Assembly: GCA_946965045.2 (NCBI GenBank)
Contig: OX337234.1
Location: 3,348,001 to 3,412,000 of the forward strand
Reading direction: 5' to 3'
From: Epithemia pelagica
Lineage: Eukaryota; Protista; Bacillariophyta
Length of the DNA stretch: 64,000 nt
This document shows positions 7,002-26,400 of this stretch, piece by piece (within the stretch, counting starts at the first letter, position 1; each line of letters begins with the position of its first letter). Both the position numbers and the translations under genes were made by a program. A model generated the notes under the pieces. That model saw only the letters and a list, made by a program, of their open reading frames with translations, did not search any database and had not been told where the DNA came from.

Positions 7002-7926
7002 ATGAAGGTTATCGCAATCAACAAGGCTAGCGGCGTTTTGCTATTGGCGGTGGTGCTTTTGCTCCGAGGAACCAAGACCGGTGCTCGTTTGCTTCGTTCC
7101 TCAGGAGACGAGATCCATAACAACAATGACTCTATCGAAAGTCCCCCGCGTAGAATGATCACCAGCGAAACCTCCCCCGACGAAGAGCATGTAGACAGTA
7201 CTAACTCCTATGACCCCTACAACAACACCAACGGACAACAAAACAACACCGATCACCAACAAAACACTACCACGGTAATACCGACAGTCGTTTCCAGCGC
7301 CCCTTCGGTATGTGACCAACAGTATTGTGATCCCTGTCCTCCTCTTGGTACCTTCTCTCACTTTAATTCTTGATTTTGGCAACCCATAGTGTGGATGTCA
7401 GGGTCGACAAGATCCGGTGCCCTTTTATGTTCGTGGTGAGAACGATACCACCTTTCTCCAAGCACGTCTCATGGATCCTCCCAATATCATAGGGGCGACT
7501 TGCATGTTGGCCCGTGCTCCCGAGACAGATTACCAACGCATCCAAATGGCCAAAGCCTGTAAACATTCGGAAAAGTGTTGGATCGGCGCCATTGCCACTC
7601 AAGCCTATGGCAGCACCATGGTTTGCAATACCCAATACAGTGGCGCATTCAATCAAACGGAATGTGAGCGCGTTCGAAGTTTGTTTCGCAATTTGGGCCA
7701 TACCAACCTCCCGGACGTGAACCATGCTCCGATTCCCTTTGCCTTTTGGGCTAACAACGAGCCCAACAACTATCAGAGCAATGATCAATTTCGTCTGGTG
7801 ATATCTGCCTTTGTCTCACCAAACTCTGGTGGATTGTTGTTTGCGGAACATGGGGATGAGACAAACCGTCACAAGCCCTTGTTTCAATGCTGCAATGATG
7901 ATATCGAGGAAACTTGTCCCTTTTAG
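7002..7926 (+). CDS. Secreted Cys-rich protein with C-type-lectin-like domain (copy A), 2 exons, 280 aa
   Basis: Exons 7002-7307 and 7390-7926. Intron GTATGT...CATAG in phase 0, conserved in copy B. Signal-peptide-like N-terminus. Motifs CWIG, FWANNEPNN and FQCC. Confidence 0.75.
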
Positions 7927-9189
7927 AAAGAGGGGAGATCTACGATGAACAGACTGACCACCATGATGATGATGACACTTTTAGATGAATATTTTTTGGA
8001 GGGCGTTGCAGGATCTTTACTCATATTCTCCTGTAACAACCAAAAACATTTTTTGCAAGAAAAACAAAGACTTCGTTGTTCATTTAATTGTAGGACCAAA
8101 CTGTCTGTAAAGTGTGTGAGTGAAGAATCTGAGAATTTCTTCCAAGGTCTCTATCAAAGTTGTGTAAGTTGTGCGCATCTCAGGCAAACTATCTTATACC
8201 TTTGGGACTTGGGGGTATGACTTGGAACGCATTGTCAATAGCAGTGTCCATTTACATTCCATGCTTGCCAGAGCTGTGTGCCAGCAAGTCAATCTTCAGA
8301 TCGAGACTTGCGTTGTTGCAACGTCGAATTGACGGAAAGCCGTCCTTCTTGAATTCATCATCAAAAATATGTGCACCTTTTTGACATTTTCGTCCCAACG
8401 CCGGTGGACCCTATCTTAAAGGCTACAGTAGTGTTGCCGCTCTTCGAACCCAGTATTGCATAGCACTGTGTATGTTTCCGAGAAAGAGGGAGATCGCGAG
8501 TTGCGGTCGAACTTCTATTAAACCGCCTTGATACTATCAAGACCGGTCGATGCAACCAAAATAAATAAACCTTCTACATGAGTGCATTTCGGATGGTTCT
8601 GGCGCATGTAAACCCTGAAAACTGAAATAAACCCTGATTCTGCGCCCGCTGCAATATCGAGAGAATGGAGGTCTTTTTAAAAAATTAGGGTGAGTCGACC
8701 GACGCGCCCAACCCCAAAATCGGCAGAGGTACAGACTTTCCACGTGGAAGTCTTTGAGGCGCACGATTAACCACGGGACTTCACTACAACACCTCACGTA
8801 ACACAAACCTAACTACGAACCATGGAGAACTCACATTTTGCAGCGAGCAAGAGCATTCCCCCAAACAATGTCAGATTCGGAAGCAAAGAAAAATGTCAAC
8901 AGTCCACATCAAACCCTTCTCATAAACCACAAAACCGACCAACCAACTAACAACAAACACAACACAAAACCACAATAATGAAGGTTATCGCAATCTACAA
9001 GGCTAGCGGCGTTATGCTTTGTGCCATGGCACTTTTCGTTGGCGGAGCCAAGACCAGTGCGCGGTTGCTTCGTTCCTCAGCCGACGAGACCTACAACAAC
9101 AACGGCAATGACTCTATCGAAAGTCCCCCGCGTCGAGTGACCACCAATGAAACCTTCCCCGACGAAGGACAAGCAGACAGTGGTAACTC

Positions 9190-9276
9190 CTACAATCCCT
9201 ACAACAACACCAACGGACAACAAAACAATACCGTGTACAACCCCTACAACAACACCAACGGACAACAAAACAATAC
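9190..9276 (+). repeat. 45-bp tandem duplication in exon 1 of copy B (YNPYNNTNGQQNNT twice)
   Basis: The segment occurs once in copy A and twice in copy B. Confidence 0.85.
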
Positions 9277-9533
9277 TAATCACGAACAAAACACAACCAC
9301 AGACAAAGAACCGACAGTCGTTCCCAGCGCACCCTCGGTAGGTGACCAACAGTATTGTGAACCCAGTCCTCGTTTTCGATCCTTTTCTCACTTTTTTTCT
9401 TACTTGCTTTTGTTGTCTCCATATACAGTGTGGATGTCTGGGTCGACAAGATCCGGTGCCCTTTTATGTTCGTGGTTTGAATGATATCACCTTTCTGGAA
9501 GCTCGTCTCATGGATCCTCCCAACGTCACAGGA

Positions 9534-9538
9534 GCGAC
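9534..9538. repeat. Target site duplication GCGAC (left; right copy 19318-19322)
   Basis: GCGAC flanks both ends. Paralog A has a single GCGAC at 7495-7499. Confidence 0.93.
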
Positions 9539-10270
9539 ACTTAATGTAAACAGATATCTAGGTGTTGGTAAAGACACGTGTTAGATATAGGTGAGGTAGT
9601 CAATATAGCTCGGGTAGCCGACCTACTGCGGTGAAACGACGATGGGGCCCTCACCTTCGAATCAGCAACTAGGTCGACTCTCTTTCACAAACAGTTTGGT
9701 TACAAACTTTTGGTTTATAAAAAGAGTGAGCTTATTCTAAGATGAAAAGTGATTTTGGAGCAGGTTTGATCTCCTCGATCCTCTAGGTATGGAACTTGTT
9801 CTATTTGTTCCATAGAGCAGTTCTTTTTGTTCTGTGCACTAGTGGGAGATCTCACCTCTCCTATTGTATCTTGTTTTGGATCTTTACTCGATGGACTTAC
9901 CTTTGACACTCTTCAGGTGGCCGGATGGCCTGCCTGAGATCCATTTGTTTTCTCAATATTGAGAGGAAGATTCGGTATCCGGTGGCTCGCCCGACATGCA
10001 AATATATACGGCTGTATAGTGGGCTCGCGGTCTGGCAAGTTTTTATGTAAATAATATAGTAGGGCGTAAGTCACGTAAAGTTCCTTAGTTTTGGCAAGCA
10101 GCGCGATCAGTACTCTAAAGCAGCTGCTCGATGCGTTGAGGTTCAATTGACGTGCGTTGAGGTGCAACGCCTGCTTCTGATCGGCATGTGGCACGTCTGA
10201 CCGCACGTCACGCATATAGCTAGAGGAAATAGTCTAATGTCTAGAGAGTTGAGAGCGGTATTCTATAACT
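9539..10270 (-). repeat. 3' LTR (732 bp)
   Basis: Direct repeat of 18586-19317. Four substitutions found by eye (near 9604, 10026, 10096, 10224). Confidence 0.97.
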
Positions 10271-10279
10271 CTCCCTCTC
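10271..10279 (-). promoter_or_regulatory. Polypurine tract GAGAGGGAG
   Basis: Purine run immediately upstream of the 3' LTR on the element strand. Confidence 0.85.
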
Positions 10280-10322
10280 ATGGAGTGATTGATGGAGAAT
10301 CACGACGTGGTATGATGTCAGT

Positions 10323-13300
10323 TTACCAACCTTGATTTAATTTGCGGCAGCGCTCAAAGAGCTCTCGATTTTGGCACTTGGTGAGATAGTCTGCCTTTTG
10401 ATCATTGGTGCCTACCATACTGACCTTTACTCCTCCGGGATGATCACCGACATGTTCCCAGAAGAAATGTAGGTAAGTATTAAAATGTTTTGTCCGGGGT
10501 GTAAGGCGTTGCTTGGTAGCTAGGTGGAAGGCTCCACTGTTGTCTTCAAAGACTTCAGAGAATATAGTTGGCTTTTCAAATGGGAGTTCTAGGTTCTCTA
10601 GAAGCTCTTCAATGACTCGTCTTGTTGCAATAACACTACGCATTGCTTGAGATAAAGCATGATATTCCGCTTGAAGTGTGCTTAGAGCTACTGAAGATTG
10701 AAGTTGCGATCTCCAAATTAGAGGACATCCACAGAAGGTTAGGATGTATCCCGTTCGTGACTTGGCACTAACCGGGTTATCCTGTGGTTCACGACCATGG
10801 AGTCCCGCAAAATCAGCGTCTACATAACAATCTAGCTTGAAGTCTTTAGTTGGAGTGAAGATTGTACCTTTGTCCTTGGTTCTTGATAGATAACGAACAA
10901 TGGTCTTGATGGCTGTTGCATGTGACTTTTTAGGTGCTGAACTGAATCTAGCGACTTGACTAACTGCGAAGGCTATATCAGGTCTGGTATTCGTGGATAA
11001 ATAGAGTAGCATTCCGACTATGGAGCTATAATGCCAGCTTTCTTTCATGGGCTCACCATCGGGATCGCTGCCGAGACCTAGCTGAGTCGCTGGGGTCCAA
11101 TTCGGATTGCAGTCGTGTAGTCCCGTGGCATTTATTATCTTGGCAATTAACCCCTTCTGGGTCATAGTAATAGACTTATTCTCATTTTGAATAAAGTTGA
11201 TGCCCAAATAGTCGGTGAAATTGCCTTCTTTCTTGAGTGATAGGCCTTTCTTCTGTAGTCGTTCGATTAATTCATCAATAAGTTTCATATCAGGGGCACA
11301 AACGCCACAGTCGTCAACCCATAGAAAAATGATGATGTTGGACTTATAAAGAAGACATTCGTCATGCTTACTTGATTTGAAACCGTCTTCCTTAAGCGCT
11401 TGTACTAGATGGATATACCACAATCTAGGTGCAGAAGACAGGCCATATAGACTTTTGATGAGTCTTAGGCAGGTCGTTCCGGGTTTACTAGATCGAAATC
11501 CTCTAGGTAGATGGATCCATACAGGTTCATCTAAGGTAGCCTGTACAAATGCGTTGTTGAAATCGATACACGCAAGTTCCCAACCCAAGATTAAACTAAG
11601 GGTGAGCACAATACGGATAGTACTCCAGTGAACCACTGGACTATAGTTCTCTTGTTCCGTTTCTTGTAGGTCTCCTCTAACACAATATCGAGCCTTATGC
11701 TTGATAATATCTCCGTCTGGAGATCGCTTGCGTTTGAATACCCATGTCCCAGGTAAAATTCGTGTATTAGCCTGGGATTGAGGGACTTCTTCCCAAGTTC
11801 CTTTCTCCTCTAGTTTGGTTATTTCCTTGCTAGCTGCCGCTTTCCATTTCTCTATGTCTGTATCTCGCATAGCCTCATCGTAAGAGAGGGTGTCGGGATC
11901 AGAGAGAGAAGCTTTGTGAACTGTTAAAAGGTCACTAGGCTCATGAGATGGTGGCATTAGAGAAGGGAGGTTTGCTAGATTGCCTTCTTCAACTAAGCGG
12001 GTAGGTCGTTTAATAGTCCTAGCAGATCTCCTAGTTGGAAGGATCGTCGGTTGGACTGCACGTGGAGGCGGTCGCGGTGGTAATCTAGCTGGAGAAGGAG
12101 AAGGGTTGTGAAGAAGGGACTCCCTCTGAGACGGCGACTCCTGGGGTGACAGATGGGGAGAAGGCGAACGAGGGGTACTCGGAGCTGTAGATTCAACTCC
12201 TGATGATACGGACACCTGTCTTTGAGGTGTCTGGTTAGTTGTCTCCCTCTGAGGAGGTGACTCCAACGATGTGGTCAATGGAGTGGGAGTGGGATCCTCA
12301 CTGGGAGTTGGTAAAGAAGCGGAGAGTGGCACTGGGAGTGGACGTGTGTTAGGTGTAGATGATGACGTCAACGGAAGATATGGTTGGCGAGTAGCAATTT
12401 GTTGTGCGACATCTGATTGACGTCGAAGATACGTATTTTGGGTAGCTTCATCAATACTAGTAGGGGAGTCTAGATCGTCCGTTTCGGATGAATCATCAGT
12501 GATATATTGATATGCAGAATCTCCAAACAGGCGATACCAAGGTTCGGATGCAAAGTCCGGAAGCTGGTCGACAGACATGGCAATAGTGCTGAACCAATCG
12601 TCGAACACTACATGGAACTGGGGCGTAATATAGCCAGTTTGAGGATTTAAGACTAATGGAACAGTACTGGCATGTTGCGTACTTATCCCCTTAAGTTGGC
12701 AGCGAATAGATTTGGGCTTCCAGCGGGGTAGTTTCTTCCCGTCTGCAATAGTTTTGTGCAGAACATAGACTGGACAGCCCCACACGTGGAGATCATGAAA
12801 TTTTCGTTGTTCCCATCGGACACGTGTGAAAACATCATGGGGGCTTATACCAGTCTCAGTATTGGGTACATGGTTGTGTAAGAAAACGGCATGTGAAACG
12901 GCCATGGGCCAGAGCGCCGGATCGGCCAATTCTGGCCACTGTATGGCAGAGTGTAACATCATGGTGCGTGCAATCGACATAATTGTTTGTATTGCCCTTT
13001 CAGCTATTCCGGCATGATGATGTGCCCCGACTCCTGCGAACCGCGAAATTTGAGCAAAGTTCTCAAGCGATTGGGAGTAGGATTTTGAGGTGAAAGCAGC
13101 TCCGTTGTCCGTTAGGTATTTGAGAGGAACTACACCCACTTCTCTACAAAATAGCTCAAAGGATCCTTTAACACTAAGCGTTTCATGAGTGTTAAGGTGT
13201 GATTGAAATCCTATCCATGTATACCCCGAGGCGTGATCGACAAAGATCGCGCCGCCCACATAAAGGTTGTCAACTTTTGACTTCCCCCGAGAGTCAAATC

Positions 13301-14276
13301 TTCGTCCTTTTGTGGAGCACACAAAATGATCTACAGAGATGCATTGTCCAGGATGGAGGTTGCCATCTTTGGTGACTCCTCGTCGATCCTTGACAATGGT
13401 TGTTGTCGAACCGGGTTCGGTGCGACGACGTTGTTTCCCAAATTGGCATGCTGCGCATAATGGTAAGTCTTGCAAAAGAGATGCAGCTTGTGAGTGTAAG
13501 CGACGAGTCTTTTCTGTTGTTGCAAGGATACCAGTGCGCATCAAGAACTGTACCTTGCGAAAGTTAAGATGTCCAAGTCTGTAATGCCATTTGAGTAATT
13601 CCTTTTGAGGAGCGGTAAGATTTTCATTGTGTTGTGATACTTCGTTCACTGTTGTGTTGAGAGCTACCGAGCCAGTCATCATGTTCTGCTTGTCGTACCC
13701 AAACGACATGGGCAGATTGTTGCTGGGATTCACCATGACGGTGACTTCTCGGCGGGATTCATCTCCTGGAATACCGGTTAAGGTAAGTGTGTAACCGTCT
13801 TGAATTATTTTCTCACCGAAGTATGTTTGAAGTAACGATTGCGTCGACAAAAGTCTAACCGATGTTTTTGGTACTAAGAACGCAGGGAGTTTGAGCGATC
13901 GGGGCATACCATTGGTGTCCAGGATCGTCCAAACAACTGTTCCACGGGCAGTAGCTTTCATCCGGTTGGCGATGCCCTTTACTTGAAGACTTGGCAAAGA
14001 GCGAATCGGTCCCACAAAATCTTTCTCGTCGTTGGTAATGCAGACACTGGCCCCAGAGTCCCAGATAATTGGGTAAGAGGCGTGTGAAGGCATAGAAGAG
14101 CGAAGTTTCGATGGATCCTGGAGTGCTGCTCTCAAGGCTTGTTGGGTGATATGTTCCCAAGGATGATGGTTCAACTCGGTGGTTGAGTGGTGGCAACGTG
14201 GTGGTTCCTGCAAGAGCATGGCCATTCCCATGCATTTGTTCTGGTTGAGTGGCGATGCAGGGTAGAAGTTGGGTAC
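10323..14276 (-). CDS. pol: Pol polyprotein (protease, integrase, RT, RNase H), in frame with gag
   Basis: PR IIWDSGAS. IN HYRLGH...CAAC, with D-D-E in SVDHF / TDNG / IAER. RT IDFNNAF and LWVDD. RH YVDADFAG, EDNSG and ADYLTK. The frame is open from 14276 and the first ATG is at 14231. Confidence 0.95.
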   Translation of the reverse strand, partial: VPNFYPASPLNQNKCMGMAMLLQEPPRCHHSTTELNHHPWEHITQQALRAALQDPSKLRSSMPSHASYPIIWDSGASVCITNDEKDFVGPIRSLPSLQVKGIANRMKATARGTVVWTILDTNGMPRSLKLPAFLVPKTSVRLLSTQSLLQTYFGEKIIQDGYTLTLTGIPGDESRREVTVMVNPSNNLPMSFGYDKQNMMTGSVALNTTVNEVSQHNENLTAPQKELLKWHYRLGHLNFRKVQFLMRTGILATTEKTRRLHSQAASLLQDLPLCAACQFGKQRRRTEPGSTTTIVKDRRGVTKDGNLHPGQCISVDHFVCSTKGRRFDSRGKSKVDNLYVGGAIFVDHASGYTWIGFQSHLNTHETLSVKGSFELFCREVGVVPLKYLTDNGAAFTSKSYSQSLENFAQISRFAGVGAHHHAGIAERAIQTIMSIARTMMLHSAIQWPELADPALWPMAVSHAVFLHNHVPNTETGISPHDVFTRVRWEQRKFHDLHVWGCPVYVLHKTIADGKKLPRWKPKSIRCQLKGISTQHASTVPLVLNPQTGYITPQFHVVFDDWFSTIAMSVDQLPDFASEPWYRLFGDSAYQYITDDSSETDDLDSPTSIDEATQNTYLRRQSDVAQQIATRQPYLPLTSSSTPNTRPLPVPLSASLPTPSEDPTPTPLTTSLESPPQRETTNQTPQRQVSVSSGVESTAPSTPRSPSPHLSPQESPSQRESLLHNPSPSPARLPPRPPPRAVQPTILPTRRSARTIKRPTRLVEEGNLANLPSLMPPSHEPSDLLTVHKASLSDPDTLSYDEAMRDTDIEKWKAAASKEITKLEEKGTWEEVPQSQANTRILPGTWVFKRKRSPDGDIIKHKARYCVRGDLQETEQENYSPVVHWSTIRIVLTLSLILGWELACIDFNNAFVQATLDEPVWIHLPRGFRSSKPGTTCLRLIKSLYGLSSAPRLWYIHLVQALKEDGFKSSKHDECLLYKSNIIIFLWVDDCGVCAPDMKLIDELIERLQKKGLSLKKEGNFTDYLGINFIQNENKSITMTQKGLIAKIINATGLHDCNPNWTPATQLGLGSDPDGEPMKESWHYSSIVGMLLYLSTNTRPDIAFAVSQVARFSSAPKKSHATAIKTIVRYLSRTKDKGTIFTPTKDFKLDCYVDADFAGLHGREPQDNPVSAKSRTGYILTFCGCPLIWRSQLQSSVALSTLQAEYHALSQAMRSVIATRRVIEELLENLELPFEKPTIFSEVFEDNSGAFHLATKQRLTPRTKHFNTYLHFFWEHVGDHPGGVKVSMVGTNDQKADYLTKCQNRELFERCRKLNQGW

Positions 14277-17200
14277 TTAAGGAAACGGTACGTTGCTTAA
14301 ATTGCAGCAAAAGTTGCTGCTGTTTCTAGTATTCGATCTCTGACGGGTGTTGCCTGTCAGGTTGATAGTTGGTTCGGCGGAGGTCGACGGCTGGAAGCAA
14401 GAGGTGCTGCGCCGGTTTTTGCAGCGGTGACTCGTCGGCATCCTGCGGCGGTTGGTCGGTGGTGTGGAGGTCATGGCGCTCGGCGGTCGGTTGGGTACAC
14501 GGCGGCGCTTGCGGTTGTGCCGGCTTGATCCGGAGTAAACGTGCCTGTTGTTCGTCGTGTTCCTGTTTCTCCCTCGCAGCGGAGTGACATGGCCTCGGAA
14601 ACCCAGAGGGCCACCCGTCTCGGTGGATGCTGACAATCCCAACAATCTGCAAACCAACACAACAATCAACCTCAAAGCGGAGAAACAAAATCCAACAATC
14701 AAACTTGGAGGTGGAAGAGATCGTGGCTTTGAGTGGAGTGGATTGCGGGTGTGGATGCGAGCGAGTCGGTACTTGAATCGGTTGACATGGTAGTTGGGGT
14801 GGTGTCCGAACCATGGTGAGTCAGGATAGCGAGAAGAAACGCGCCAAATGACCACCAAAACAACAATCCAACATGAGAGCCAAGTGATGATGGCAGGCAT
14901 GAAGGATGGATGAGTCACGTATGAGAGCAGTAAGAACCATAGACCTGTATATAAGTCGTAGATTCCTGTTAGAAAATGACTTAGACCGATGTAAATTGTA
15001 GTCTTTCCTTCATTGTAATAGGTGTCAGCTCCCGTAGAGGGTGAGGCGGTAGGGTAGAGCCACTGGATCACAGGTAGGACAAGGACAAGGTGGGCGAGTG
15101 CAACTAAGAAAAGGTGCAGCCACGCAGAAGTTTCTGCCGTAGGTACCTCGTCCGACTCGCGCGCCAGCCGATCATCAAAATCGCGACGGACCGGCGAAGG
15201 GGTCACGTGTCCAAACCTGAATGGGGTGTAGTGGACTTCTACGCATTTCCCTACCAGAGAATCCTCATCAGATGATACTGTTTCTTCCATAGTGTCAATT
15301 GGGACGTTTTGTCGGTCCTGGGGACCTCCCTCCGATTCATTATTCTTGATCCAGAAATTTTGGGTCTCATTTTTAGAACAATCGTCGACCCATGCCATGT
15401 TGGCAAAGTATTTGGTGAGCGGCACAGTTTTTGCTGAGTCGCCACCACTGCTTGCTGTGTCTGCATCGGTAGGTACGTACTTCTCCCCAAGAGTGTTGTT
15501 GGGTGTAAACGAAGTAGAAGACAAACTGTCCGCACTACTCTCACGATGTGTTCGGAGTTGTGCTGATGCAGGTGTAAAGCGATGGCTAATGGACGACGTG
15601 TCCATCGGTTGAATATTGAAGCAAGGCATCATCGGTCCAGGAGGAATGGGGGACATGCCTGGAAAAGAGTGTTCCGGTCGAGGGTGATTTGGGATCAAAG
15701 TCCCATCGACGTAGTATCCCATTGCCCATTCTTCTTCCTTGACACGCTGATATGCTTCAGCGACGGTAAGTTTTGGTTCACGCCATGCATTGGCAAAGAC
15801 TGTTTTTGCTGCACGTTCGTATCTCATTCCATCACGTTTTGCCTGTTCTGCTTCGAGAACGAATTGTTCAGACGGGTAACGAGCGATTGGCTGCTGCATG
15901 GTGAGTTTTCGTCGCGGAGGCAGTTGCGGTGGAGGAGACGGAGCTTGGTGTGCCAGCGCAAAGGGTGCTGATGGCCGTGGCGGAAGCGGTGGCTGTGGAA
16001 GAATTGGTGAGATGGCAGGGAGTTTCTTTTCAAGGCTAGGTGGTCGTCCCTGCTGCAGCATTTTGAGAGGGGCATTCATATCATCGACGGACAGATCCAT
16101 GCTGGCTTCTTGCGTACGGTAAGTGTCATTATTTGCCATGCTGGTGTCTTTTGTGTCTTGATCCATGCTTTCATAGCTCTCATTGACTGCTGCTGCTGCC
16201 TGGATTTCTTTGTCGTACAAACCTTCGAGGAAACGTTGGGTTTCCAAATCGGAGAATTTGACAGCTTCAGAATCGAGGGCAGACAGAGATGGTCCCAGTT
16301 CCTCCCACTTGTTGAAATACTTTGGCTCGTTTCCAAAGTCAGGTTCAATGGGAGTTGAGGTAGGTTCCGTGGTATTGATTGTGCTTGTTGTGTTGCAAGA
16401 AGAAGAGTCTTGCATGTCGCTTGTGGTTGTCTCACTGTCTTGTTCTTCTTGTTCCAATGCTGCTGAGGTAATGCGATCAGGCGTTACCAGGTTCAAGGTA
16501 TTGGATGAGAAGAGGGACGAGGAGGTTGATGACCCATCGTCCATTTCTTCTTCGGTGTCAACGGTTTGGGTCAAATTGACCACAAGATTGTACGCACAAA
16601 GGTCGTACTCGTCGTCCGTCTCGGAGCAATCCACATCAGTTTTAGCGTCGTCCATGTTGGGAGGACACTTCACACAAACACAATTTGCTTCAAAATCGTC
16701 GTGGTCGAAGAGCCAAGAGTGCTCTTTGTTGACCATTTCGTAAGTATTCGCATCATCAAGGCCGTTTTTCTCGATGTATGCTGCCCATGCTGCCGGTTCC
16801 ATTTCTAACTTGTTTGCTTGATGCTGTTTGGAACTCGACTTGTTGGATTTGAAACCAACAATATGCTCACTGGTTTTGTGAGTTGGATTCCAGTTGGTGC
16901 ATTTTCCGCACCAGTACATGGGCTTTCCGTCCACCATCCGCATTTCTGGTTCCCCTTCTTTGGGAGGGATGCGGCGCCAGTTGTTATCGCTGGAAGAGGT
17001 ACGTTTCGTGAAGTTGTTGTTGTTTTTGTTTTTGTTGTTGTTCTTCCCCTTCTCACGAACGTATGTCTTCTTGTTCCCGGGTGTGTTCATTTGCTGAACA
17101 AGAGCGTTGGCTTGAATGGACTTGGTCTGTTTTCCTTTCTTGGAAACTGTGGCATTGTTAGCACCATACGATGTTGGTGGTGCCTTGGAATCCCGGTGAG

Positions 17201-18167
17201 TGCTCTTTGCGCTCCATTCCCCGCGCTTTACACTAACCCAATATTTGCTGTTTGCCTCTTCGATCACGTGCGTATAGAGCAGCTTGTTTGTGGTCATGTA
17301 TTGATCCGCTGCTGCACGGTCGAGAAACCGAATGTGATCGACACTGTCCTGGACAGACTTGTTCAGGAGCAGGAGAGAAAACTTCGGAGTCGGCGGCCAT
17401 TCTGCTTTCAAAATGTTTGTGAGCAGGCTCGCCGTGAGGGTGTGGTCGTAAAGACCAGCGGCGGTAAGAGATCGGGCCTTTGCGGCGAAATCGGTGGTAA
17501 GTGCAGTGATGTCATGGCCGGCGTAGTTGTGCGGGTCCAATGAACGCATCTCACTTTTTACGATTTCCCAATGTTCGATTGAGTCGTCCGTAATAATGCG
17601 GACGATGATCATGAACAGCTCCGGAAAGGATGCAACGTCGCGGGATTGGTCCTCCACTTCCCGTCGAAATGTCTTATCCAATGAGTCAAGTAAGTAGTCT
17701 TGCGCCGCGGCATCGTTGTTGGCGTCATACTTATCATACTTGCTCACCTGTTGTTTCATTGCTTCGTGAACCTTTGTGTGAGTGAACCGTGGGTGTTCGG
17801 TAACGATGTTGAGCATGGAGGACTTACTGAGTGGATCGAGTAAGTACATAATCGTATCCATGCCATGTTTCGTGAAATGGCGGACTAATTCATCTTGGAG
17901 TCTTGAAAAATCGCCTTTCTTCTTATCGAACTTTTCTACAGGGCCAGTCACCCGATCAAGGTACCGCTTGTCGGTAAAGGTACGTAGCTGGAGACTGCGG
18001 ACTGGATGGTCCTTGGCTTTGTCGTCTAACCCTTTCCAATCTGGTTTGGGTTTACCGCCAGTCCAGGGGACGTACGTGTCCTTGCTGGATTGAACGAGGC
18101 CGCCCATTCTGGGACGGTCGGGCATAAAGACATCAGTGTCTTGTTGGGGAGAGTCTTCACCTGACAT
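14277..18167 (-). CDS. gag: Gag with long C-terminal extension including hydrophobic segments, 1296 aa
   Basis: Gag-like N-terminal ~460 aa ending in the Zn-knuckle variant WCGKCTNWNPTHKTSEH. It is followed by acidic, Ser/Thr-rich and Pro-rich tracts, hydrophobic segments and an Arg-rich tail. Confidence 0.85.
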   Translation of the reverse strand: MSGEDSPQQDTDVFMPDRPRMGGLVQSSKDTYVPWTGGKPKPDWKGLDDKAKDHPVRSLQLRTFTDKRYLDRVTGPVEKFDKKKGDFSRLQDELVRHFTKHGMDTIMYLLDPLSKSSMLNIVTEHPRFTHTKVHEAMKQQVSKYDKYDANNDAAAQDYLLDSLDKTFRREVEDQSRDVASFPELFMIIVRIITDDSIEHWEIVKSEMRSLDPHNYAGHDITALTTDFAAKARSLTAAGLYDHTLTASLLTNILKAEWPPTPKFSLLLLNKSVQDSVDHIRFLDRAAADQYMTTNKLLYTHVIEEANSKYWVSVKRGEWSAKSTHRDSKAPPTSYGANNATVSKKGKQTKSIQANALVQQMNTPGNKKTYVREKGKNNNKNKNNNNFTKRTSSSDNNWRRIPPKEGEPEMRMVDGKPMYWCGKCTNWNPTHKTSEHIVGFKSNKSSSKQHQANKLEMEPAAWAAYIEKNGLDDANTYEMVNKEHSWLFDHDDFEANCVCVKCPPNMDDAKTDVDCSETDDEYDLCAYNLVVNLTQTVDTEEEMDDGSSTSSSLFSSNTLNLVTPDRITSAALEQEEQDSETTTSDMQDSSSCNTTSTINTTEPTSTPIEPDFGNEPKYFNKWEELGPSLSALDSEAVKFSDLETQRFLEGLYDKEIQAAAAVNESYESMDQDTKDTSMANNDTYRTQEASMDLSVDDMNAPLKMLQQGRPPSLEKKLPAISPILPQPPLPPRPSAPFALAHQAPSPPPQLPPRRKLTMQQPIARYPSEQFVLEAEQAKRDGMRYERAAKTVFANAWREPKLTVAEAYQRVKEEEWAMGYYVDGTLIPNHPRPEHSFPGMSPIPPGPMMPCFNIQPMDTSSISHRFTPASAQLRTHRESSADSLSSTSFTPNNTLGEKYVPTDADTASSGGDSAKTVPLTKYFANMAWVDDCSKNETQNFWIKNNESEGGPQDRQNVPIDTMEETVSSDEDSLVGKCVEVHYTPFRFGHVTPSPVRRDFDDRLARESDEVPTAETSAWLHLFLVALAHLVLVLPVIQWLYPTASPSTGADTYYNEGKTTIYIGLSHFLTGIYDLYTGLWFLLLSYVTHPSFMPAIITWLSCWIVVLVVIWRVSSRYPDSPWFGHHPNYHVNRFKYRLARIHTRNPLHSKPRSLPPPSLIVGFCFSALRLIVVLVCRLLGLSASTETGGPLGFRGHVTPLRGRNRNTTNNRHVYSGSSRHNRKRRRVPNRPPSAMTSTPPTNRRRMPTSHRCKNRRSTSCFQPSTSAEPTINLTGNTRQRSNTRNSSNFCCNLSNVPFP

Positions 18168-18573
18168 GGTGTTGGAAGCAACAATCAGCCGCTTTTGGGA
18201 AGAACGAGACGCGTCGGTTTGCTGAGCAGAGCCAGGGAGAGGTGCGGTCTGTTGCTGGGGTTCTTGCTGGATGTCTGCAAGATCAGGTGGTACACTGAGT
18301 GGAGGCTCAGTGGGGTCAGTCCGATTCAGGTCAGGAGTAGTGTCAGACTCGTCGACACTCTCTGCTGTTACGAGTTCGAAACTGCCAGCGCCACTAGAGG
18401 TAGGAGAGTCTTGGTCTTCCTCCGTTGTGGCTACGGGGTGGATGCCTTGCTAGGGATGTCCACTCCTTGCGCGCGTATAGATGCCGTAGTAAGAGGTGAA
18501 CCTTATAGAGTTCTCCCTCTTGGTAATATAATAGTCGATCGATCAGGAAACGTCTGGTTTACCAGCCTTATTT

Positions 18574-18585
18574 GGGCTCATAACC
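18574..18585 (-). promoter_or_regulatory. Primer binding site GGTTATGAGCCC, complementary to the anticodon arm of initiator tRNA-Met
   Basis: Directly abuts the 5' LTR. The plus strand reads GGGCTCATAACC, containing the CAT anticodon. Same type as the Ty5 and Drosophila copia half-tRNA PBS. Confidence 0.88.
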
Positions 18586-19317
18586 ACTTAATGTAAACAG
18601 ATATCTAGGTGTTGGTAAAGACACGTGTTAGATATAGGTGAGGTAGTCAAAATAGCTCGGGTAGCCGACCTACTGCGGTGAAACGACGATGGGGCCCTCA
18701 CCTTCGAATCAGCAACTAGGTCGACTCTCTTTCACAAACAGTTTGGTTACAAACTTTTGGTTTATAAAAAGAGTGAGCTTATTCTAAGATGAAAAGTGAT
18801 TTTGGAGCAGGTTTGATCTCCTCGATCCTCTAGGTATGGAACTTGTTCTATTTGTTCCATAGAGCAGTTCTTTTTGTTCTGTGCACTAGTGGGAGATCTC
18901 ACCTCTCCTATTGTATCTTGTTTTGGATCTTTACTCGATGGACTTACCTTTGACACTCTTCAGGTGGCCGGATGGCCTGCCTGAGATCCATTTGTTTTCT
19001 CAATATTGAGAGGAAGATTCGGTATCCGGTGGCTCGCCCGACATGCAAATATATACGGCTGTATAGTGGGCTTGCGGTCTGGCAAGTTTTTATGTAAATA
19101 ATATAGTAGGGCGTAAGTCACGTAAAGTTCCTTAGTTTTGGCGAGCAGCGCGATCAGTACTCTAAAGCAGCTGCTCGATGCGTTGAGGTTCAATTGACGT
19201 GCGTTGAGGTGCAACGCCTGCTTCTGATCGGCATGTGGCACGTCTGACCGCACGTCACGCATATAGCTAGCGGAAATAGTCTAATGTCTAGAGAGTTGAG
19301 AGCGGTATTCTATAACT
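18586..19317 (-). repeat. 5' LTR (732 bp)
   Basis: Direct repeat of 9539-10270. Immediately followed on the minus strand by the PBS. Confidence 0.97.
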
Positions 19318-19322
19318 GCGAC
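19318..19322. repeat. Target site duplication GCGAC (right)
   Basis: Matches 9534-9538. Confidence 0.93.
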
Positions 19323-20400
19323 TTGTATGTTGGCTCGTGCTCCCGAGACAGATTACCAACGCATCCAAATGGCCAAAGCCTGTAAACATTCGGAAAAGTG
19401 TTGGATCGGCGCCGTTGCCACTCAAGCCTATGGCAGCACCATGGTTTGCAATACCCAATACAGTGGCGCATTCAATCAAACGGAATGTGAGCGCGTTCGA
19501 AGTTTGTTTCGCAGTTTGGGCCATACCTACCTCCCGGACGTGAACCATGCTCCGATTCCCTTTGCCTTTTGGGCCAACAACGAGCCAAACAATTACCAGA
19601 ACAATGATGACTTTCGCCTGGTTATATCTGCCTTTGTCTCACCAAACTTTGGTGGATTGTTGTTTGCGGAACATGGGGATGAGACAAACCGTCACAAGCC
19701 CTTGTTTCAATGCTGCAATGATGATATTGAGGAAAGTTGTCCGTTTTAGAAACAAACAGGGGAAAGAAACAATGACCACCACAACAGCCCTTTGGATGAG
19801 TTTGGTTCTGTAGTGTTCATAACCATTTCGAACGTTTTCATAAACATCTGTTGATCATTTTCTTCTTGTTGTCCAATTCGGTCAAAGTCTCGGCATCCCA
19901 ATACTCCATCTACGGTACAGACGCCGTGTTCGCTTCCTATAACAGCGAGCCCTCAACGTCACTCACAACTACCCGTTGTAGAGGGCGGATCGCCTGCTCA
20001 TTCCCGGAATCCAATTCCTTGGTTCCTTACCAGTCCAATTTGCCGCAACAGAAAGGAGGTGTGTTGGTCGAATTCAGGATTCTCCATTGTTGGATGCCTC
20101 CGCATACCGTTTCGACGTCACCAACAGCAAAACAACTCAAGTTTGTCAAGCCTTTGAGACGAGAGAGGACGCCAATATAACAAATAGGGTATCTATGGTA
20201 TTGTGCAATTCGGTCGTTTCATGCAACAAGGAGGAGGAGGACGACTAGATGATCAAAGAATCACGGCGATTCCGGAGAACAAAACAGAAAAAAGTTGGTG
20301 GCGGAGACGACAAAAATCCACAAACATTGACGTTCCAAAAAAGTCTTGCCACGACAACGACGACGACGACGACGACGACAACGAACAAGTTTGGATACCG

Positions 20401-20418: not shown

Positions 20419-23400
20419 AGAACTGATGGACAAACTCATGATCTGTGCCAACCAAGAAAGTGACATTCTGTACTGACCAGAAGAGCCGAGTTTGTTCATG
20501 GGTCGTTGTGTGGCTGGTGGCCTTCCCCATTTCATGGCTCATTATGGTTCATCTGTGGATTTTGGATTTGTCTCGGAACTCGGAAGCACCGGTTGTCCTC
20601 CGGTCGCATTTGTATGGGCTATAATCTTTGATGGGGAGTAGTGAGTAGTGTAAATTATGGGCTTAGCACTTAGCAACTCACTTACCACAGAACACAGAAC
20701 ATTCGCCATTAATTCCCCTCCATATTGGTGAGGCGGCCAGACATATCCCCAACCCTATCTTTTTTTAATATCGCCCGCCACTGCTCCAGGTAGCTCTAAG
20801 TATCTCTAATTGCCAACACCGTTTCATACAGGTCGGCTTGCGTCCAGTGGTTTCTGAATGCTCATAAATTTGGGCAACCCTCTTGTTCTCGTCTGTCACA
20901 AAACCCAAAACCGAGGCAAATGCTTGACCATGACGTGAGGCAAGAACCATGGACGGATCATGCTGGGCTGAATTGCATTTAACTTCTCACTACTGCTGCT
21001 TGTTTCAAATCTTGTCGTCTCCTTTTGTTAGGATTCTCACCGAAAACTAGGTGGCGAAACCTACAACTCATCGAATGATGCTAGTATTTTATGGCATCCG
21101 ATGACATTTTCCTAAAAGTGAGAAAAGAATGTCGGCATGCTCGCGAAACTATAAATTTGGCCACGGCATGCTCGCAGTGCACGCGTTATCGGCGACCGCT
21201 CGGATATTAACTATGGCCCAACACGTGCGCGCCCAAAACTATCAAGTGCGCGCCTCTACTATCCGAGTACGCGCATCCACGATTCGACCTAACGGTCTAT
21301 GTAATCAAAGCACGAATCACGATCACGCGAGACCATATCTCTGTTCCCACAAATCCAAGAATGCAAACAGCAACGCGCCCAGGACAAGACTTATACCACG
21401 ACAAAGCAAGAGCTGTTGCATCCCATACGTGTTATCCATCACCCTATACATTCAATATACACCAATGCCGGTCTACTCCAACCAGTGAGGACCTATCACA
21501 CCAGATCCATGGCCGTATACAAGAGCCAGGACTTCGGCACCATCAACCACCTTAGTTAGTAATCGTCTCACAATCATTAATATCACCATTTTAACACTCA
21601 TCTTAAGACTAACCTCTTATCAGTGGACCGACTGCCCCCACCCACGGCGGACTTCGACTTGCAACTCTTCTCTGACCCGTGGAGGATTGTTGTATCGGTT
21701 GGTGATTCGATTGTCGGCTCAGCGAGCCTTTTACCTATCCTACCTATCTGTCTAACCCCTGTTGAATCGAGAGAAGTTTATCACCTTTTCTTTCTTCTTA
21801 CTCATCACTGCTGCAATCCTTCCTTTTGTTCTTGCATGATCCTTTGGATTTGTCTCATGTTGTACGAGTAGACTGGGTATAAGCTGCTTGTGGTCAAGTG
21901 GAATATCCTTCCCTTTCCCCTTCTTGTAATTCTTTTGTCGTTTGATTGTTGGCTGGTTGGTTACTTTCATGTTTCCTGTAGGATAGATGATTCACTATTC
22001 ATAGTATCATTGTCAATCATTTCTCAACGACCGCAAATTTTGTTGTTTTTGCTTCAAGTAGATGGATGGCTCCATCTTGCTCTTGCCACTTGCCACACCC
22101 TACTTTCCAATTATCAGCTCCTAGAGCTAGAGTCAAACAGCGAATGATTCAATTTGTAGCTGTACAAGCGTGTAAGAGCTGCTCTGTCGTGTGTTCATGG
22201 TGAAACTGAGGGTCATTGACGTGCTCAAAACAGAAAACTGATGTACTACACGAATACAGAAGGCACTAAACTCTATGGATGGCTAGCACTTGAGTTCTAT
22301 TTCTAGTTAATAAAGAAAAGGAGGTCTATAGTCTGTGGATAAATGCAATGGAAGTTATGGGTATCATTTCGACAGAAATGAACAATGGCAAGTAATGAGC
22401 TGCTGAGCCAGAGACACAGCAGATGAGCAGACTCTCGTCCCATGAGCAGAGCAAGCAAAAGTGACAAGTGTGAGTGAGCATGAGCAATGTAATTGTCATG
22501 GCAATCCTCAATGGATCAAGCTCACCTGGAATGTCATTGATACGATGTGCTTTGGCAAGAGAAAAGGATTGTGTGCTTGTCCGGTATTATGAATTATGAA
22601 ACAACCAATCGTCATCCACGCAGGGCCGCTTGCTGGCAGTTGGAGAGCTGGCAAAGCCACCCCATTCGAGAGCAAGCTTTCCCTAGCACGTGTCCACGAA
22701 ACGCGACCGAGTTTGGTCTGGCCGCCTCACCAATATGGAGGGGAAATAATGGCGAATGAAAACAGAAGAGACCTAACCCGTTATTGTAACATTCGGAACG
22801 CGATCATTGATCATGTATGAAATCAGTCACGATGGGACATTTGTAAACTACAGCCCGCATCTGGATCAATGCATTCTCCTTGCTACACCGGAATAGACCG
22901 ACCTGACTGTACGAAGGATTTGGTACTTTTTCGCCTATTGTGGGAGTGCTCGCTCTTCCGGAGAACAAACGCCCCATGCAGGAATTTCGATGCGCGATCG
23001 GCGTGTTCTGCTGTCTTGTCTGTGTCTCTCTTGTCCGGTGAAAGTCTAAGGCAATACAGAAAAAATCAACGGTAACATCCTTCACGACAATCTCATTGAT
23101 TTTCCAAAGAAAATAAAGCATTTCTCAACGAGCACCTCCGTTGTGCCCAGATTCGTTTCGATACAGACAGGCGAAAGAAGAGTAACGAAAAAGAGGAGAG
23201 GACGAACGATAAGGGGGACGACAAGAAGAAGAGGAGGACGAGGACGAGAAGAAGAAGATTCGGGGGAGAGGGAGGAGACGAGGACAACGACTTGGCACTT
23301 TTGGCGTATCTTTGTGTTGAGGCAACCTGAACGGTGCTTAAATTCTTGACTTGTTTGTTGCTAGATAGTTTTGGACATTCTTGCCTGTTCCTGTTCCTCA

Positions 23401-23498: not shown

Positions 23499-26400
23499 AT
23501 GGAGGACCAAAGTGTTTCGTCGTCCACATTTATAGACAGTCTTTCGGATTTGGGCTTTTCGGGAGCGTTGGACGATGATACCGAAACAGAATATCCAGAA
23601 CAAGAAGAAGAAGAAGACACGAGGAACAACAGCCCCAACAACCAGAACGATGGCGATCCAAACACTCACAAACCAGATGAGAATGACGACGACAATGGAT
23701 CGGTCGATAGTATGGAGGACCGTCAAGAACAAACAGAGGAGGCCAAAAAGAGGGCACGGTCTCGACACTTGTGGGGTGTCTTGGCGCCCACCACCATGGC
23801 CTTGGGGACCATGTTGACCAAGGTCAGTCACGACAATGGACTCGTCGATGAAGACGATGTGATTGCAGCCGCCGTCCTGCTCAAGGAATCCACGACCTCG
23901 ACCGTGACATCGACCACCACGACTGGCGCGGCAGGAGGCAATGCCACGGCAGCCACTACCACGGCAACCTCGGCTCAGTAAGTACCGACGAGGAGAACGT
24001 AGCATCGAACGAGTTGTGGTTGTTGTTGTGTGTTTGTCTCATGCACATTTGTTTACGGTACAACTACATAATTTGTTTGGACTCTCTCTCGTGTTTAGAA
24101 TGCAAGCAGCACTTCAACAAATGGCCGTGGCGGCCGCCAACAATGCAGCCGGTTCCGCTGCCACTGGTACGTATCGGCAGGAAGGTGCCTTGCCTTGGAA
24201 ATCAATGTATACACAGTCATTGCTCTCATGGCCTAGGTTTGTTGTTTCATCTTGAGAACAGCCAGTACGGCCTCTTCGGCCGCAGCGGCGGCCGCTGCTG
24301 CGACTACTACAACTACCGTTGCCACCAGTACGGCCGTTCCCGTGACGGCGACGGCAACTGTTGTGGCGGCAGCGGCCGTGGCGGGCAATTATTTATGGGT
24401 CGAACCGTCCCTGGCAACCTATTATTGTCCCAATGTGACGAATCCGATTGAAAAACGAGCGACCATGACGTTGAATTTTATCCGCAACCAGGAGCAAGAG
24501 GATACGAGTCTCGTCCAGTTTCAACCCTTGACCTTGGATCAAGGAGCTCAATTGGAAACAGTGTTTAACGACACGTACAATGATTTGTTGGGATTTTGTG
24601 GCAAACCGTTGGATCGTGTCATTACCAATGTCTCGGTGGACTGTGACGATGACCAAGGGTCTTGTTGTTCCGTTCTGGAACAGACACTGTTGTACGGGGA
24701 CGTTTTGCAATGCAATTTGACCGCCTTTTTCTGGTGCGATGGATGTGAAGGATTGTTTGATGGATTAGTAGAAGGATTGGACGACGAGGAACATGAAGGC
24801 TTGGTCGGAGCCACCCTGGTGGGGGACGAGACCAACAATAACGTGCAACCCAGCAGCGGCACCACGGCGACTACGACTAGTACTACGGCTACGGTGGACG
24901 CTTTGTCGACCGGAATCACCCCGGCAGAACCCATGGAGTACTCGGTTCCAACCACAACTAGTAGTACGACGGCGGCTGCGTTGGAATCCTTGGAATACTA
25001 CGACAGCACACTGCCAATGACAACAACGGCGGAGGGAGACGAGGACCCACAAACAACAAATGCCAATGTATTTTCGTTCCATGACAAGTCCTCGGACCAG
25101 GAAGTCAACCATGATCCTTCTGGAACTGTCCTTCCACCAGAAGCAATCACTAATCCATCAAAGTCCACTTCAGCATCATCATCAGCAGCATCGCTGGTTT
25201 CCACCAAGACCGGAATAGGGGACGACCCAGACGAAGTGAGCAATGTCTTTTCGTCGTCCTTTCCTTTTCAACCATCGGAACCGGAAACATACAATGTTGC
25301 TAGTTTTTCGTTTACAAGAGAATCTTCATTGTCGGGGGACTCTGTCGACGATCCAATGAGTCAGGGATCCACCAATGGGGAAGTCGTAATGTTGGTTGGT
25401 ATCTCGGGAATGACGGTCGTGGATGGTGCGGCGATTCCCATTTATCCTACACGGAATTTCCGTCTCGTGGAGAATCCTCTCAAGGCTGGAAAAGCCTCCC
25501 GGACTGAGTCCGTCTCCGATGCCAATGTGTTTGGTAAGCATGAGGGTGAGCCGTTTTCTTCTGAGACGGGGAACTATAACGCCAATGCCAATATGTTTGG
25601 CAAGCATGACGAGGGTATGACGTTTTCTTTTGAGACGGGCAACGACAGGTACAGACGTCGAGCTTTGAACGAATTACCCGAAAATTGCTCTGAAGAGTCG
25701 TCCTCTGGCTTTTGGACGTGTTTGCAGACAGCTACTTGTGCCGAAATTGGGCTTTGTGTCACTATAGCTCGAGTTGATGCCCTTTACGAATTTGAACGGA
25801 TGCTAACGCCCATCACAAATGCAAATGCGGGAGATGAGGACGTGGTCATTGAACCCACTGAGAAAGACGATGCCAACACAGATTTCCTGGAAGCAGAACC
25901 CTTTACCGAACCAGTTTCTGAAACGATTACATTGGTTCCACCGATTACGTTGGCTCCAACAGTATCTGTAGCACCGAGCCTCCAGTCTTCTTTCCTGCCA
26001 TCGCTGTCGCCTAGCATGGCGCCATCGGGCTCACCATCAGAGGGTCCCACTTCTGTCCCAAGCACAACGCCATCACAATCACCCTCCCTCTCTCCTAGCA
26101 GCCAGCCAAGCTTTGTTCCGAGCGAAACTCCCTCAGAACGACCGTCGCTGTCTCTAACCGAAACACCAAGTTCTGCCCCCTCTTCCATTCCAACAGCGAT
26201 GCCCTCTTCAAAGCCTTCGGACAAACCCTCTGTTTCTCCAAGTTTCGTTCCGACCGATATGCCTTCTGTTATGCCATCCGTTGAACCGTCGAATGAGCCA
26301 TCGCTGTTGCCGTCGTCATTGCCGACGGCCGGTCCGAGTAAATCGCCGTCCGACATTCCAAGCTCAAGTCCTTCGAGTTTACCTTCGACTTCTCCGGTTG

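Follow-up and report, generated by a model that had tools for sequence, protein, structure and literature searches.

A conserved hydrophobic block between Gag and protease in a lineage of Ty1/copia retrotransposons

Between the end of Gag and the protease, the Ty1/copia element described here encodes a block of hydrophobic helices followed by a basic tail, and this block is standard for the wider lineage rather than a quirk of one copy. The element lies in the window, by which we mean the whole stretch of 64,000 nucleotides that was analysed. The usual picture of a copia polyprotein is Gag-PR-IN-RT-RH with only a short linker behind the knuckle, and a selected, lineage-wide membrane block would add a sixth, so far unannotated component to mobile elements that are probably abundant in diatoms. 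We tentatively interpret the block as a membrane anchor, and weigh this below against other explanations.

The element and its Gag-Pol frame

The window element is a young LTR retrotransposon of 9.8 kb on the minus strand (Table 1). It has the two LTRs with target duplication, the PR-IN-RT order with an RVT_2-type reverse transcriptase, and the PBS and PPT of the Ty1/copia group (Pseudoviridae). Pfam matches in Pol run in the order Pol_BBD (weak, E 0.096), gag_pre-integrs, rve, SH3_retrovirus and RVT_2 (E 2.4e-41), while RNase H, without a Pfam match, is assigned by position. On the sense strand the LTR ends read AG...GT, not TG...CA, and the PBS is presumably similar to the site at which Drosophila copia uses an initiator-Met half-tRNA; the window itself has no host tRNA. 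The end of pol and the 3' LTR are 52 nt apart, which is too little space for another ORF. Among the matches listed, only four RT relatives carry a species name (57-61% identity); they belong to two pennate diatoms, Fragilaria crotonensis and Mayamaea pseudoterrestris, and the host is likely a pennate diatom.

The CoDi copia elements of diatoms (PMC2806351, PMC2774666) share the PR-IN-RT order and the near-identical LTRs, and have at most a single stop separating gag from pol. TG...CA ends are found in 23 of 26 CoDi families and are lacking in three, as in the window element, so that AG...GT is not exclusionary, whereas at 9.8 kb the window element is longer than the largest CoDi element (8,062 bp). 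No Chromo family was found at the integrase C-terminus among Pfam matches up to E 1; the chromodomain published for CoDi clade A is called "putative" and may be divergent.

Table 1. Features of the window element (positions in the window; KD, Kyte-Doolittle hydropathy)
Feature	Position	Strand	Basis or remark
Target duplication GCGAC, 5 bp	9534..9538; second copy 19318-19322	+	single at paralogous empty site near 7495
5' LTR	18586..19317	-	732 nt; 4 mismatches to 3' LTR over 733 aligned nt; edge fixed by target duplication
PBS	18574..18585	-	abuts 5' LTR; from sequence
Gag capsid and basic region, aa 1-417	16917..18167	-	29-56% identity to copia polyprotein Gag regions; no Pfam match
Cys/His knuckle W-C-x2-C-x2-W-x3-H-x4-H, aa 418-436	16860..16916	-	alignment of relatives
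N-L-x-P-x-A-W motif past knuckle, aa 452-463	16779..16814	-	N and W at least 90% conserved (alignment A1)
Acidic, Ser/Thr- and Pro-rich spacer, aa 464-1010	15138..16778	-	subfamily-specific; predicted mostly disordered
Helical island within spacer, aa 765-836	15660..15875	-	conserved; matches no known family
Hydrophobic helix 1 (predicted TM1), aa 1016-1034	15066..15122	-	KD 19-mer mean 2.39; helix in AlphaFold model
Loop of ~55 aa, two amphipathic helices including GLWFLLLSYV (14916-14945)	14904..15065	-	KD 1.21; model helices aa 1045-63, 1068-85
Hydrophobic helix 2 (predicted TM2), aa 1089-1107	14847..14903	-	KD 2.45; H-P-S-x-x-P-A-x-x-x-W motif
Third helix, R-L-I-V motif, aa 1155-1177	14637..14705	-	KD 2.47 (aa 1155-1173, nt 14649-14705); holds Arg/Lys
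Arg-rich tail, aa 1196-1262	14382..14582	-	charge counts
In-frame TAA after codon 1296	14277..14279	-	private to window copy
Pol: PR (DSGA), gag-pre-integrase, integrase, RT, RNase H	10323..14276	-	same frame as Gag; Pfam
Polypurine tract	10271..10281	-	adjoins 3' LTR; from sequence
3' LTR	9539..10270	-	pairwise LTR alignment

An open frame of 1296 aa runs on the minus strand from the ATG at 18167 to the TAA, and pol continues in the frame of Gag past this one stop. All four sister proteins that span the junction (P0002, P0014, P0021, P0022) have Gln there, and position 14279 is G in the covering contigs of two runs, X1 and X3. Because the sister proteins and these contigs read Gln at the TAA, the family has one Gag-Pol frame and the stop is private to this copy; the same Gln rules out programmed readthrough. 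Given its private stop, the window copy would yield no more than Gag and the anchor. The first-pass annotation was thus right that the frame stays open well beyond the knuckle, but what it took for an extension of Gag in front of pol is a module inside a single Gag-Pol.

The zinc knuckle that it placed at about aa 420-440 is present, but is not a canonical CCHC: its C, C, W, H and H are invariant across 96 aligned relatives, and the window's subfamily has no CCHC at all. Sireviruses, whose env-like ORF is located after pol, are likewise copia elements with a long region past the first knuckle. They differ in that their Gag tails carry duplicated CCHC arrays (PMC2774666), while the window's subfamily has none and the window element has no ORF space behind pol. 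The N-L-x-P-x-A-W motif past the knuckle, which Ty1 protease sites with N at P1' resemble (PMC6952103), is a putative protease site that would close Gag.

Hydropathy, structure and constraint of the block

Four hydrophobic stretches had originally been picked out. Three are strong (Table 1), while the fourth, GLWFLLLSYV, reaches a KD of just 1.2-1.4 in the window copy and 0.69-1.13 in sister families, and is better read as a portion of an amphipathic helix. No stretch elsewhere in the 1296 aa exceeds 1.2. In four sister families helix 1 reaches 2.07-2.86 and the third helix 1.51-1.68; helix 2 reaches 1.54-1.92 in sister families, with its H-P-S-x-x-P-A-x-x-x-W motif conserved. The third helix is likely to lie on the membrane surface rather than to span it. 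In the 60 aa past it there are 12 K/R versus 1 D/E in the window copy and 13-18 K/R in the sister families, and the acidic/Ser-Thr, Pro-rich and Arg-rich tracts are as first described. We use the term "transmembrane" on the basis of hydropathy, charge asymmetry and AlphaFold helices. The model of a typical member has helix, helix, helix and basic helix (pLDDT 82) and that of the window protein has the same helices (pLDDT 56-74), although pTM is low in both (0.32 and 0.23, respectively) and their packing is not modelled reliably.

The block is open and conserved both among sister copies and across four related families. A segment with KD of at least 1.6 is found in the linker between knuckle and PR in 99 of 105 related polyproteins, against 3/105 for Gag and 0/54 for the IN-RT linker as controls, which places the segments beyond chance. 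Helix 1 reaches this value in 92 of these 99 linkers; helix 2 is marginal in typical members, with a median of 1.2 and a value of at least 1.6 in 21/99. The loop between the two has a median length of 32 aa (maximum 70), and the 40 aa behind helix 2 are net positive in 97/99, with a median of +8. The block is present in 23 of 25 metagenomic frames, and not every member needs it, since the remaining two, L065 and L066, have linkers of 78-83 aa that lack it.

Six pairs of relatives outside the window's subfamily gave dN/dS values for the block of 0.08, 0.14, 0.23, 0.35 and 0.42, with one pair saturated, so in these relatives the block is under purifying selection. Across 22 loci T is over-represented at the second codon position (0.42) and not at the third (0.28 versus 0.26-0.27), which indicates that the constraint acts on the protein. 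A U-rich RNA signal or intron behind the hydrophobic codons is excluded by these third positions, and a gene overlapping aa 1011-1180 by the stops, 3-13 per frame, that interrupt all five other frames.

Sequence identity across the linkers is low overall (median 24%), and alignments of the window-subfamily block with the typical module score no better than reversed controls. The presumed kinship of the two is based on position, layout and nesting in the tree; direct sequence homology is not significant. Pfam found no family common to two members among the window frame and 41 module sequences, a PDB sequence search with the module profile gave a best E of 0.2, and a wide PDB fold search, which barely covered the helical island, gave generic helices with a best Z of 7.1 (none of at least 8). 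Neither of the low-pTM models matched the viral fold library at E <0.001, and no fusion-protein fold was seen there. There was no usable match to the typical module in the ESM Atlas, and none in viral contigs or in a metagenome scan with P0007 as query. Among the matches listed, the module is seen almost only in these elements.

Whether the block was already a documented part of CoDi Gag had been left undecided. It is standard for the lineage, but the literature searched, mainly open-access papers, nowhere reports copia elements with a TM block placed between Gag and PR. The word "transmembrane" is absent from the main texts of Maumus et al. 2009 (PMC2806351) and Llorens et al. 2009 (PMC2774666).

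A possible membrane hairpin and its alternatives

Our preferred reading, which we hold as a serious but tentative possibility, is that the block forms a two-helix hairpin with both ends cytosolic, anchoring Gag-Pol to an ER-type membrane until the protease frees it. Helix 1 would enter the membrane and helix 2 return, or the pair may dip in as a re-entrant hairpin; we infer a two-way crossing because the flanking parts, Gag ahead of the block and PR-IN-RT behind it, both have to be on the cytosolic side. The basic tail would be compatible with the positive-inside rule. Cuts at the conserved Asn motif past the knuckle and near the start of the protease would then free capsid and enzymes. Several points weigh against this arrangement. 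Three crossings would place Pol in the lumen, and the third strong segment has for that reason to be assumed to lie on the surface. Helix 2 is marginal in typical members, L065 and L066 do without the block, and a tether behind NC would lie within the closed capsid unless it were cut off or borne by few subunits. Small hydrophobic polyprotein units that tie capsid or replicase precursors to an ER-type membrane and are excised by the viral protease include the flavivirus anchored capsid, picornavirus 2B/3A and potyvirus 6K2. This likeness is one of function only, the PDB sequence search and the viral fold library having given no match to the block.

With co-translational insertion, genomic RNA under translation would stay at the membrane and particles would begin to assemble there, in parallel with the SRP targeting of Ty1, which works without a TM helix. 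According to Doh et al. 2014 (PMC3945221), Ty1 Gag has neither a signal sequence nor a TM domain, yet SRP directs it to the ER and it passes through the lumen; the earlier premise that copia Gag is normally soluble was to that extent too strong. In this fellow copia-family element the translating RNA and Gag meet the ER membrane, where assembly foci nucleate, which is a precedent for assembly nucleated at the ER; the difference is that the present elements encode hydrophobic helices of their own and that both flanks would be cytosolic. With the block, the questions of where LTR elements assemble and by what means they get to the nucleus become open to experiment, and natural controls exist in L065 and L066, which have no block, and in the subfamily that does not carry the YPxxL motif described below.

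Of 104 linkers, 75 contain YPxxL (against a mean of 6.4 and a maximum of 12 after shuffling), 74 the longer YPxxLR and 58 H-x-x-YPxxL (0.26 after shuffling); the motif mostly lies 52-65 aa past helix 2. Its Y, P and L are the sole invariant columns of alignment A1, their codons varying synonymously, and the conserved stretch around them reads S-x-R-D-H-x-L-H-R-x-Y-P-x-x-L-R. The module could be a released accessory membrane protein that recruits ALIX/ESCRT through YPxxL, so as to wrap particles in membrane, carry them through the nuclear envelope or export them from the cell. We consider this unlikely, although the enrichment and invariance of the motif speak for it, as does its position between NC and PR, which is the one that HIV p6 occupies. 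The two-residue spacing is also that of YPAKL in L1 ORF1p, where ALIX co-IP is lost upon changing the Tyr (PMC5478143), and of the late domain YPETL in HERV-K p15 (PMC3874623). In contrast to these YPXnL late domains, the motif here is embedded behind a membrane block in a conserved stretch longer than a late domain requires, which could bind RNA or another partner, and it is absent from the window's subfamily (P0001, P0022, P0027, P0043, P0044, P0045). Moreover, an anchor behind NC has the wrong orientation for retrovirus-like budding.

Slightly more doubtful again is the fuller proposal that a large algal copia lineage encodes its own membrane-trafficking unit, in which a protease-released hairpin and a late-domain-like YPxxL recruit ESCRT to wrap particles, or to pass the nuclear envelope or reach another cell. 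The window's subfamily would then be derived, having given up the motif in favour of a long spacer and a novel helical domain. If true, this would be a way for Ty1/copia to form membrane-associated particles without Env, which has never been described, and it would bear on horizontal transfer in plankton.

Improbable to about the same degree as ALIX recruitment is that the block regulates dosage or timing. Pol would be limited or delayed by capture at the membrane, by stalling at the basic tract or by host membrane proteases, giving more Gag than Pol from one frame, or protease activation would await assembly. Gag and PR share a frame in 26 of the 31 loci that have both, so that no stop or frameshift sets the Gag:Pol ratio, and the block and basic tract sit exactly between Gag and Pol. 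Among 20 frames with PR in which no knuckle was parsed, none showed a stop immediately ahead of the block. However, other single-frame copia elements set this ratio by splicing, and the motifs are near invariant, although little conservation of sequence would suffice for a degron or stall.

The first-pass annotation had suggested a membrane-tethering or envelope-like module. Conservation, recurrence and purifying selection agree with the first half of that suggestion, but an envelope-like or FAST-like fusogen for cell-to-cell transfer is very unlikely. The block looks accessory, being missing from 2/25 frames, but silica-walled unicells bring membranes together mainly at sex. A retroviral-type Env would be a separate ORF after pol with a large Cys-bearing ectodomain, furin site and fusion peptide; here the block precedes PR within a single frame, its ~55-aa loop in the window copy has no Cys and no RxxR, and the low-pTM models gave no fold match in the viral and PDB searches. 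The closer comparison is with the sORF2/FAST-like proteins of the Drosophila MDG1-group (Ty3/gypsy), in which an LTR element without Env likewise codes for a TM helix, behind which come a basic patch and an amphipathic helix (PMC11952523). Those are separate, single-pass ORFs of 63-107 aa, often myristoylated, whereas the window block has two or three hydrophobic helices within a copia polyprotein, with ~1000 aa ahead of helix 1 and no N-terminal myristoylation Gly (no MGxxxS/T start); membership of this group is therefore rejected.

Least probable of all is a neutral or captured stretch, open merely because anything ahead of Pol must be stop-free: low linker identity and an indel-rich spacer would suit it, and it stays plausible only for much of that spacer, but for the hydrophobic block it is largely refuted by dN/dS well below 1, by recurrence in the linkers and by the T bias at codon position 2. 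Motifs invariant across deep branches also speak against it, and the profile search gave no clear host source among the 150 listed of 183 matches.

The acidic spacer and its helical island

The spacer of ~550 residues ahead of the block is special to the window's subfamily, where it would extend the tether. It is rich in indels and on the tree has originated at least twice. Identity to three sister families is 12-28% over aa 451-700, and in the window protein model pLDDT is below 50 across most of aa 836-1018. A PSAP occurs at aa 732; it was discarded as a late domain, since sister families do not retain it. A search with the helical island found matches only in its own subfamily. Over aa 751-850, which include the island, identity to the three sister families is 42-56%, and the island is modelled as two helices with pLDDT 77-85.

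Distribution and conservation of the hydrophobic block

The Gag-Pol protein of the window copy contains three strong 19-residue hydrophobic segments by Kyte-Doolittle (KD) mean, at residues 1016 (helix 1, 2.39), 1089 (helix 2, 2.45) and 1155 (helix 3, 2.47); GLWFLLLSYV, listed among the hydrophobic stretches in the first-pass annotation, peaks at only 1.2–1.4. The block of helices and basic tail is a trait of the whole lineage and not an oddity of this copy. From 681 matches in a reverse transcriptase (RT) search we examined the best 120 together with five further proteins, and both the zinc knuckle and the protease (PR) motif could be parsed in 105 of these 125, the other 20 being truncated or outside the pattern. 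In this sample, which is skewed toward close RT relatives so that the edge of the block-bearing lineage lies beyond it, the knuckle-to-protease linker holds at least one window of KD at least 1.6 in 99 of 105 polyproteins and two or more in 53. Of the six below threshold one is a parsing error (protein P0123) and the remaining five peak at 1.42–1.60. As controls, the Gag part attains 1.6 in 3 of 105 and the integrase (IN)-RT linker in 0 of 54. The median linker length is 332 residues, with the first helix approximately 55 residues downstream of the knuckle.

Metagenomic sequences gave a similar picture, as 75 loci provided 25 frames with knuckle and protease, 23 of which (two of them identical) contain the block. 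The other two, loci L065 (2721-5573) and L066 (506-2203), have linkers of 78–83 residues that keep the flanking motifs without a membrane block. A quick tree does not place the two as sisters, and they are natural deletion controls.

The module is real and under selection. Ninety-six short linkers can be aligned, at a median identity of 24%, over one fixed series of N-L-x-D-P-S-A-W, helix 1, A-P-x-x-W (helix 2), an Arg-rich stretch and S-x-R-x-H-x-L-H-x-x-Y-P-x-x-L-R. The Y, P and L of the YPxxL motif are invariant across 41 chosen members, and 75 of 104 linkers carry the motif, compared with 6.4 on average after shuffling. A dN/dS check, of the kind suggested by the first-pass annotation, was made on six locus pairs of relatives, where the block gave 0.08, 0.14, 0.23 (based on 7 changes), 0.35, 0.42 and one undefined value, the higher ones coming from almost saturated pairs. 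Codon position 2 of the block is enriched in T, position 1 less so and position 3 not.

A module profile matched 183 of 1.84 billion representative sequences. Among the 150 matches listed, 106 are flanked by Gag, protease or linker sequence, another 36 are not long enough to classify, and the flanks of the last 8 are long and unexplained. Judged by eye, these eight comprise five fragments of such elements, frameshifted or incomplete, two chimeric-looking sequences and one of low complexity. The module had no match in Pfam, PDB sequences or fold libraries, and AlphaFold modeled a typical example as a string of six helices (pLDDT 82, pTM 0.32). A predicted protein of 965 residues, P0268, carries the basic and YPxxL portion alone ahead of unrelated sequence, possibly through exon capture or as a gene-calling chimera.

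Our literature search found no description of this module between knuckle and protease. Neither "transmembrane" nor "envelope" occurs in the accessible portions of the main text of Maumus 2009 (PMC2806351) or of PMC8147415, nor "transmembrane" in those of Llorens 2009 (PMC2774666), and the module is apparently undescribed so far.

The window element and its subfamily

The pol region has copia domain order and an RVT_2 reverse transcriptase (Pfam); all membership tests run agree that the element is Ty1/copia, and it is probably one of the CoDi elements. Named RT relatives among the best 120 of 681 matches are only four proteins, from Fragilaria crotonensis and Mayamaea pseudoterrestris, at 57–61% identity, which makes a pennate diatom the likely host. 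The two LTRs differ by 4 mismatches in 733 aligned bases, and a 5-bp duplication lies on both sides of the element, the same word being single at a paralogous empty site near 7495. The insertion target is one copy of a ~2-kb tandem duplication (6971-7929; 8949-9538 plus 19318-19752) of 83–96% identity. Despite the young insertion and clean target duplication, the sense-strand LTRs (18586-19317 and 9539-10270) end in AG...GT rather than TG...CA, so the integrase would need to tolerate non-canonical ends. The polypurine tract (PPT) core AGAGGGAG has nine matches in the window against 1.9 expected, four of them within the element (10271, 12120, 12243 and 18513). In relatives (loci L001-L074) similar purine runs encode Q-R-E between IN and RT and R-E-G between Gag and PR; such internal PPT-like runs could possibly act as plus-strand priming sites.

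The first frame of the window copy runs for 1296 codons, from 18167 down to a TAA at 14277-14279, directly past which pol continues in the frame of Gag. The window's cluster has 19 members; among the 15 listed, four besides the window cover this junction, and all four have Gln instead of the stop. One of these four, P0022, is a complete Gag-Pol of 2621 residues. Base 14279 is G in the covering contigs of sequencing runs X1 and X3 (X4 and X5 have no coverage there). These runs may come from the source of the window itself, so they give the base carried by most copies and are not independent. Because sister proteins and these contigs lack the stop, the TAA is private to the window copy, and what was first described as a Gag extension ahead of pol is a linker within a single polyprotein. 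Another minus-strand frame stays free of stops for 164 codons (14326-14820), overlapping both helix 3 and the Arg-rich tail. A second family in X1, at higher depth, matches the DNA only at 14027-14081, 14313-14350, 14626-14671 and 15204-15256, one of these patches being helix 3.

Complete linkers in the window subfamily (the window copy, P0022, P0027, P0043, P0044 and P0045) are 936–1151 residues long. The block is kept across sister families at ~24–40% identity and with motifs in common; KD ranges are 2.07–2.86, 1.54–2.45 and 1.51–2.47 for helices 1, 2 and 3. The subfamily lacks YPxxL and an upstream CCHC. Its long acidic spacer before the block is mostly weakly conserved, except for an island at residues 765-836 with 42–56% identity and pLDDT 77–85 (AlphaFold), a search with which, restricted to proteins of 169–2000 residues, recovered its own subfamily only (2 of 53 candidates).

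When a subfamily-block profile was run on 100 other linkers and on the same sequences reversed, the true orientation had no advantage (48 higher, 50 lower), and profile-profile comparison with the typical module gave a probability of 0.3%, yet paired the two P-x-x-W helices. Sequence alone thus fails to connect the two. A quick PR-IN tree, built from 81 of the 131 eligible rows, places the subfamily within module-bearing elements, adjoining P0046, P0047, P0048 and P0049 (support 87). A second branch likewise has long spacers ahead of the block. From position, layout and tree nesting we infer that the blocks are homologous.

Possible roles of the block

In LTR elements capsid and enzymes are both cytosolic. 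As these lie before and after the block, it must either make an even number of membrane crossings or loop into the membrane and back. With helices placed by a heuristic, helix 1 has KD at least 1.6 in 92 of 99 linkers and helix 2 in 21 of 99 (median 1.2), the loop between them is short, and the 40 residues past helix 2 are net positive in 97 of 99. A robust first helix, marginal second helix, short loop and positive tail fit a hairpin followed by a basic tail on the cytosolic side.

We tentatively favor, at somewhat less than an even chance, a role for the block as a membrane tether of the Gag-Pol precursor. It would enter the membrane during translation, the tethered precursor would nucleate particle assembly at an ER-type membrane, and the element protease would cut the tether away. 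Ty1 offers a functional precedent for ER-nucleated assembly, its Gag being targeted by SRP to the ER, where assembly foci nucleate (PMC3945221, accessible portion). An Asn motif behind the knuckle resembles Ty1 protease sites as described in part of PMC6952103, and by analogy cleavage may occur there.

Recruitment of ESCRT by YPxxL is rather unlikely: such spacing is functional in L1 ORF1p (PMC5478143) and HERV-K (PMC3874623), in the portions available, but the motif is missing from the window subfamily. We consider a dosage or timing device improbable to the same degree. A fusogenic role is very doubtful. The block shares a TM-basic-amphipathic layout with FAST-like proteins, and was rejected as a FAST member on features set out in the accessible part of PMC11952523. 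Nor does it qualify as an Env; TM segments by themselves do not define an env gene (PMC5408684, in part). The module, shared by the whole lineage, is more probably an anchor inside the cell's own polyprotein traffic than the envelope-like unit considered in the first-pass annotation. Least probable of all is that the block is neutral sequence.

Other features of the window

Features located in the window, with coordinates and strand
Feature	Position	Strand	Remark
LTR retrotransposon	9539-19317	minus	carries hydrophobic block
Two overlapping ORFs	597-3306	plus	447 + 513 aa
Inverted repeats, 43 nt	20700-20742 + 22716-22758		98% complementary, 1973 nt apart
Convergent long ORFs	24465-28910, 30143-34333	plus, minus	Pro-Ser-rich repeats, mucin-/adhesin-like
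Inverted duplicate gene pair	48334-49158, 49465-50316	plus, minus	DNA identity 84%
Large ORF	60117-63767	plus	unites DUF1800 + DUF1501 domains

The overlapping ORF pair had no Pfam match at E 0.01; by eye, the two ORFs look like genes for RT/RNase H and a tyrosine recombinase, such as DIRS/Ngaro-type elements carry. The inverted repeats mark a candidate non-autonomous DNA transposon.
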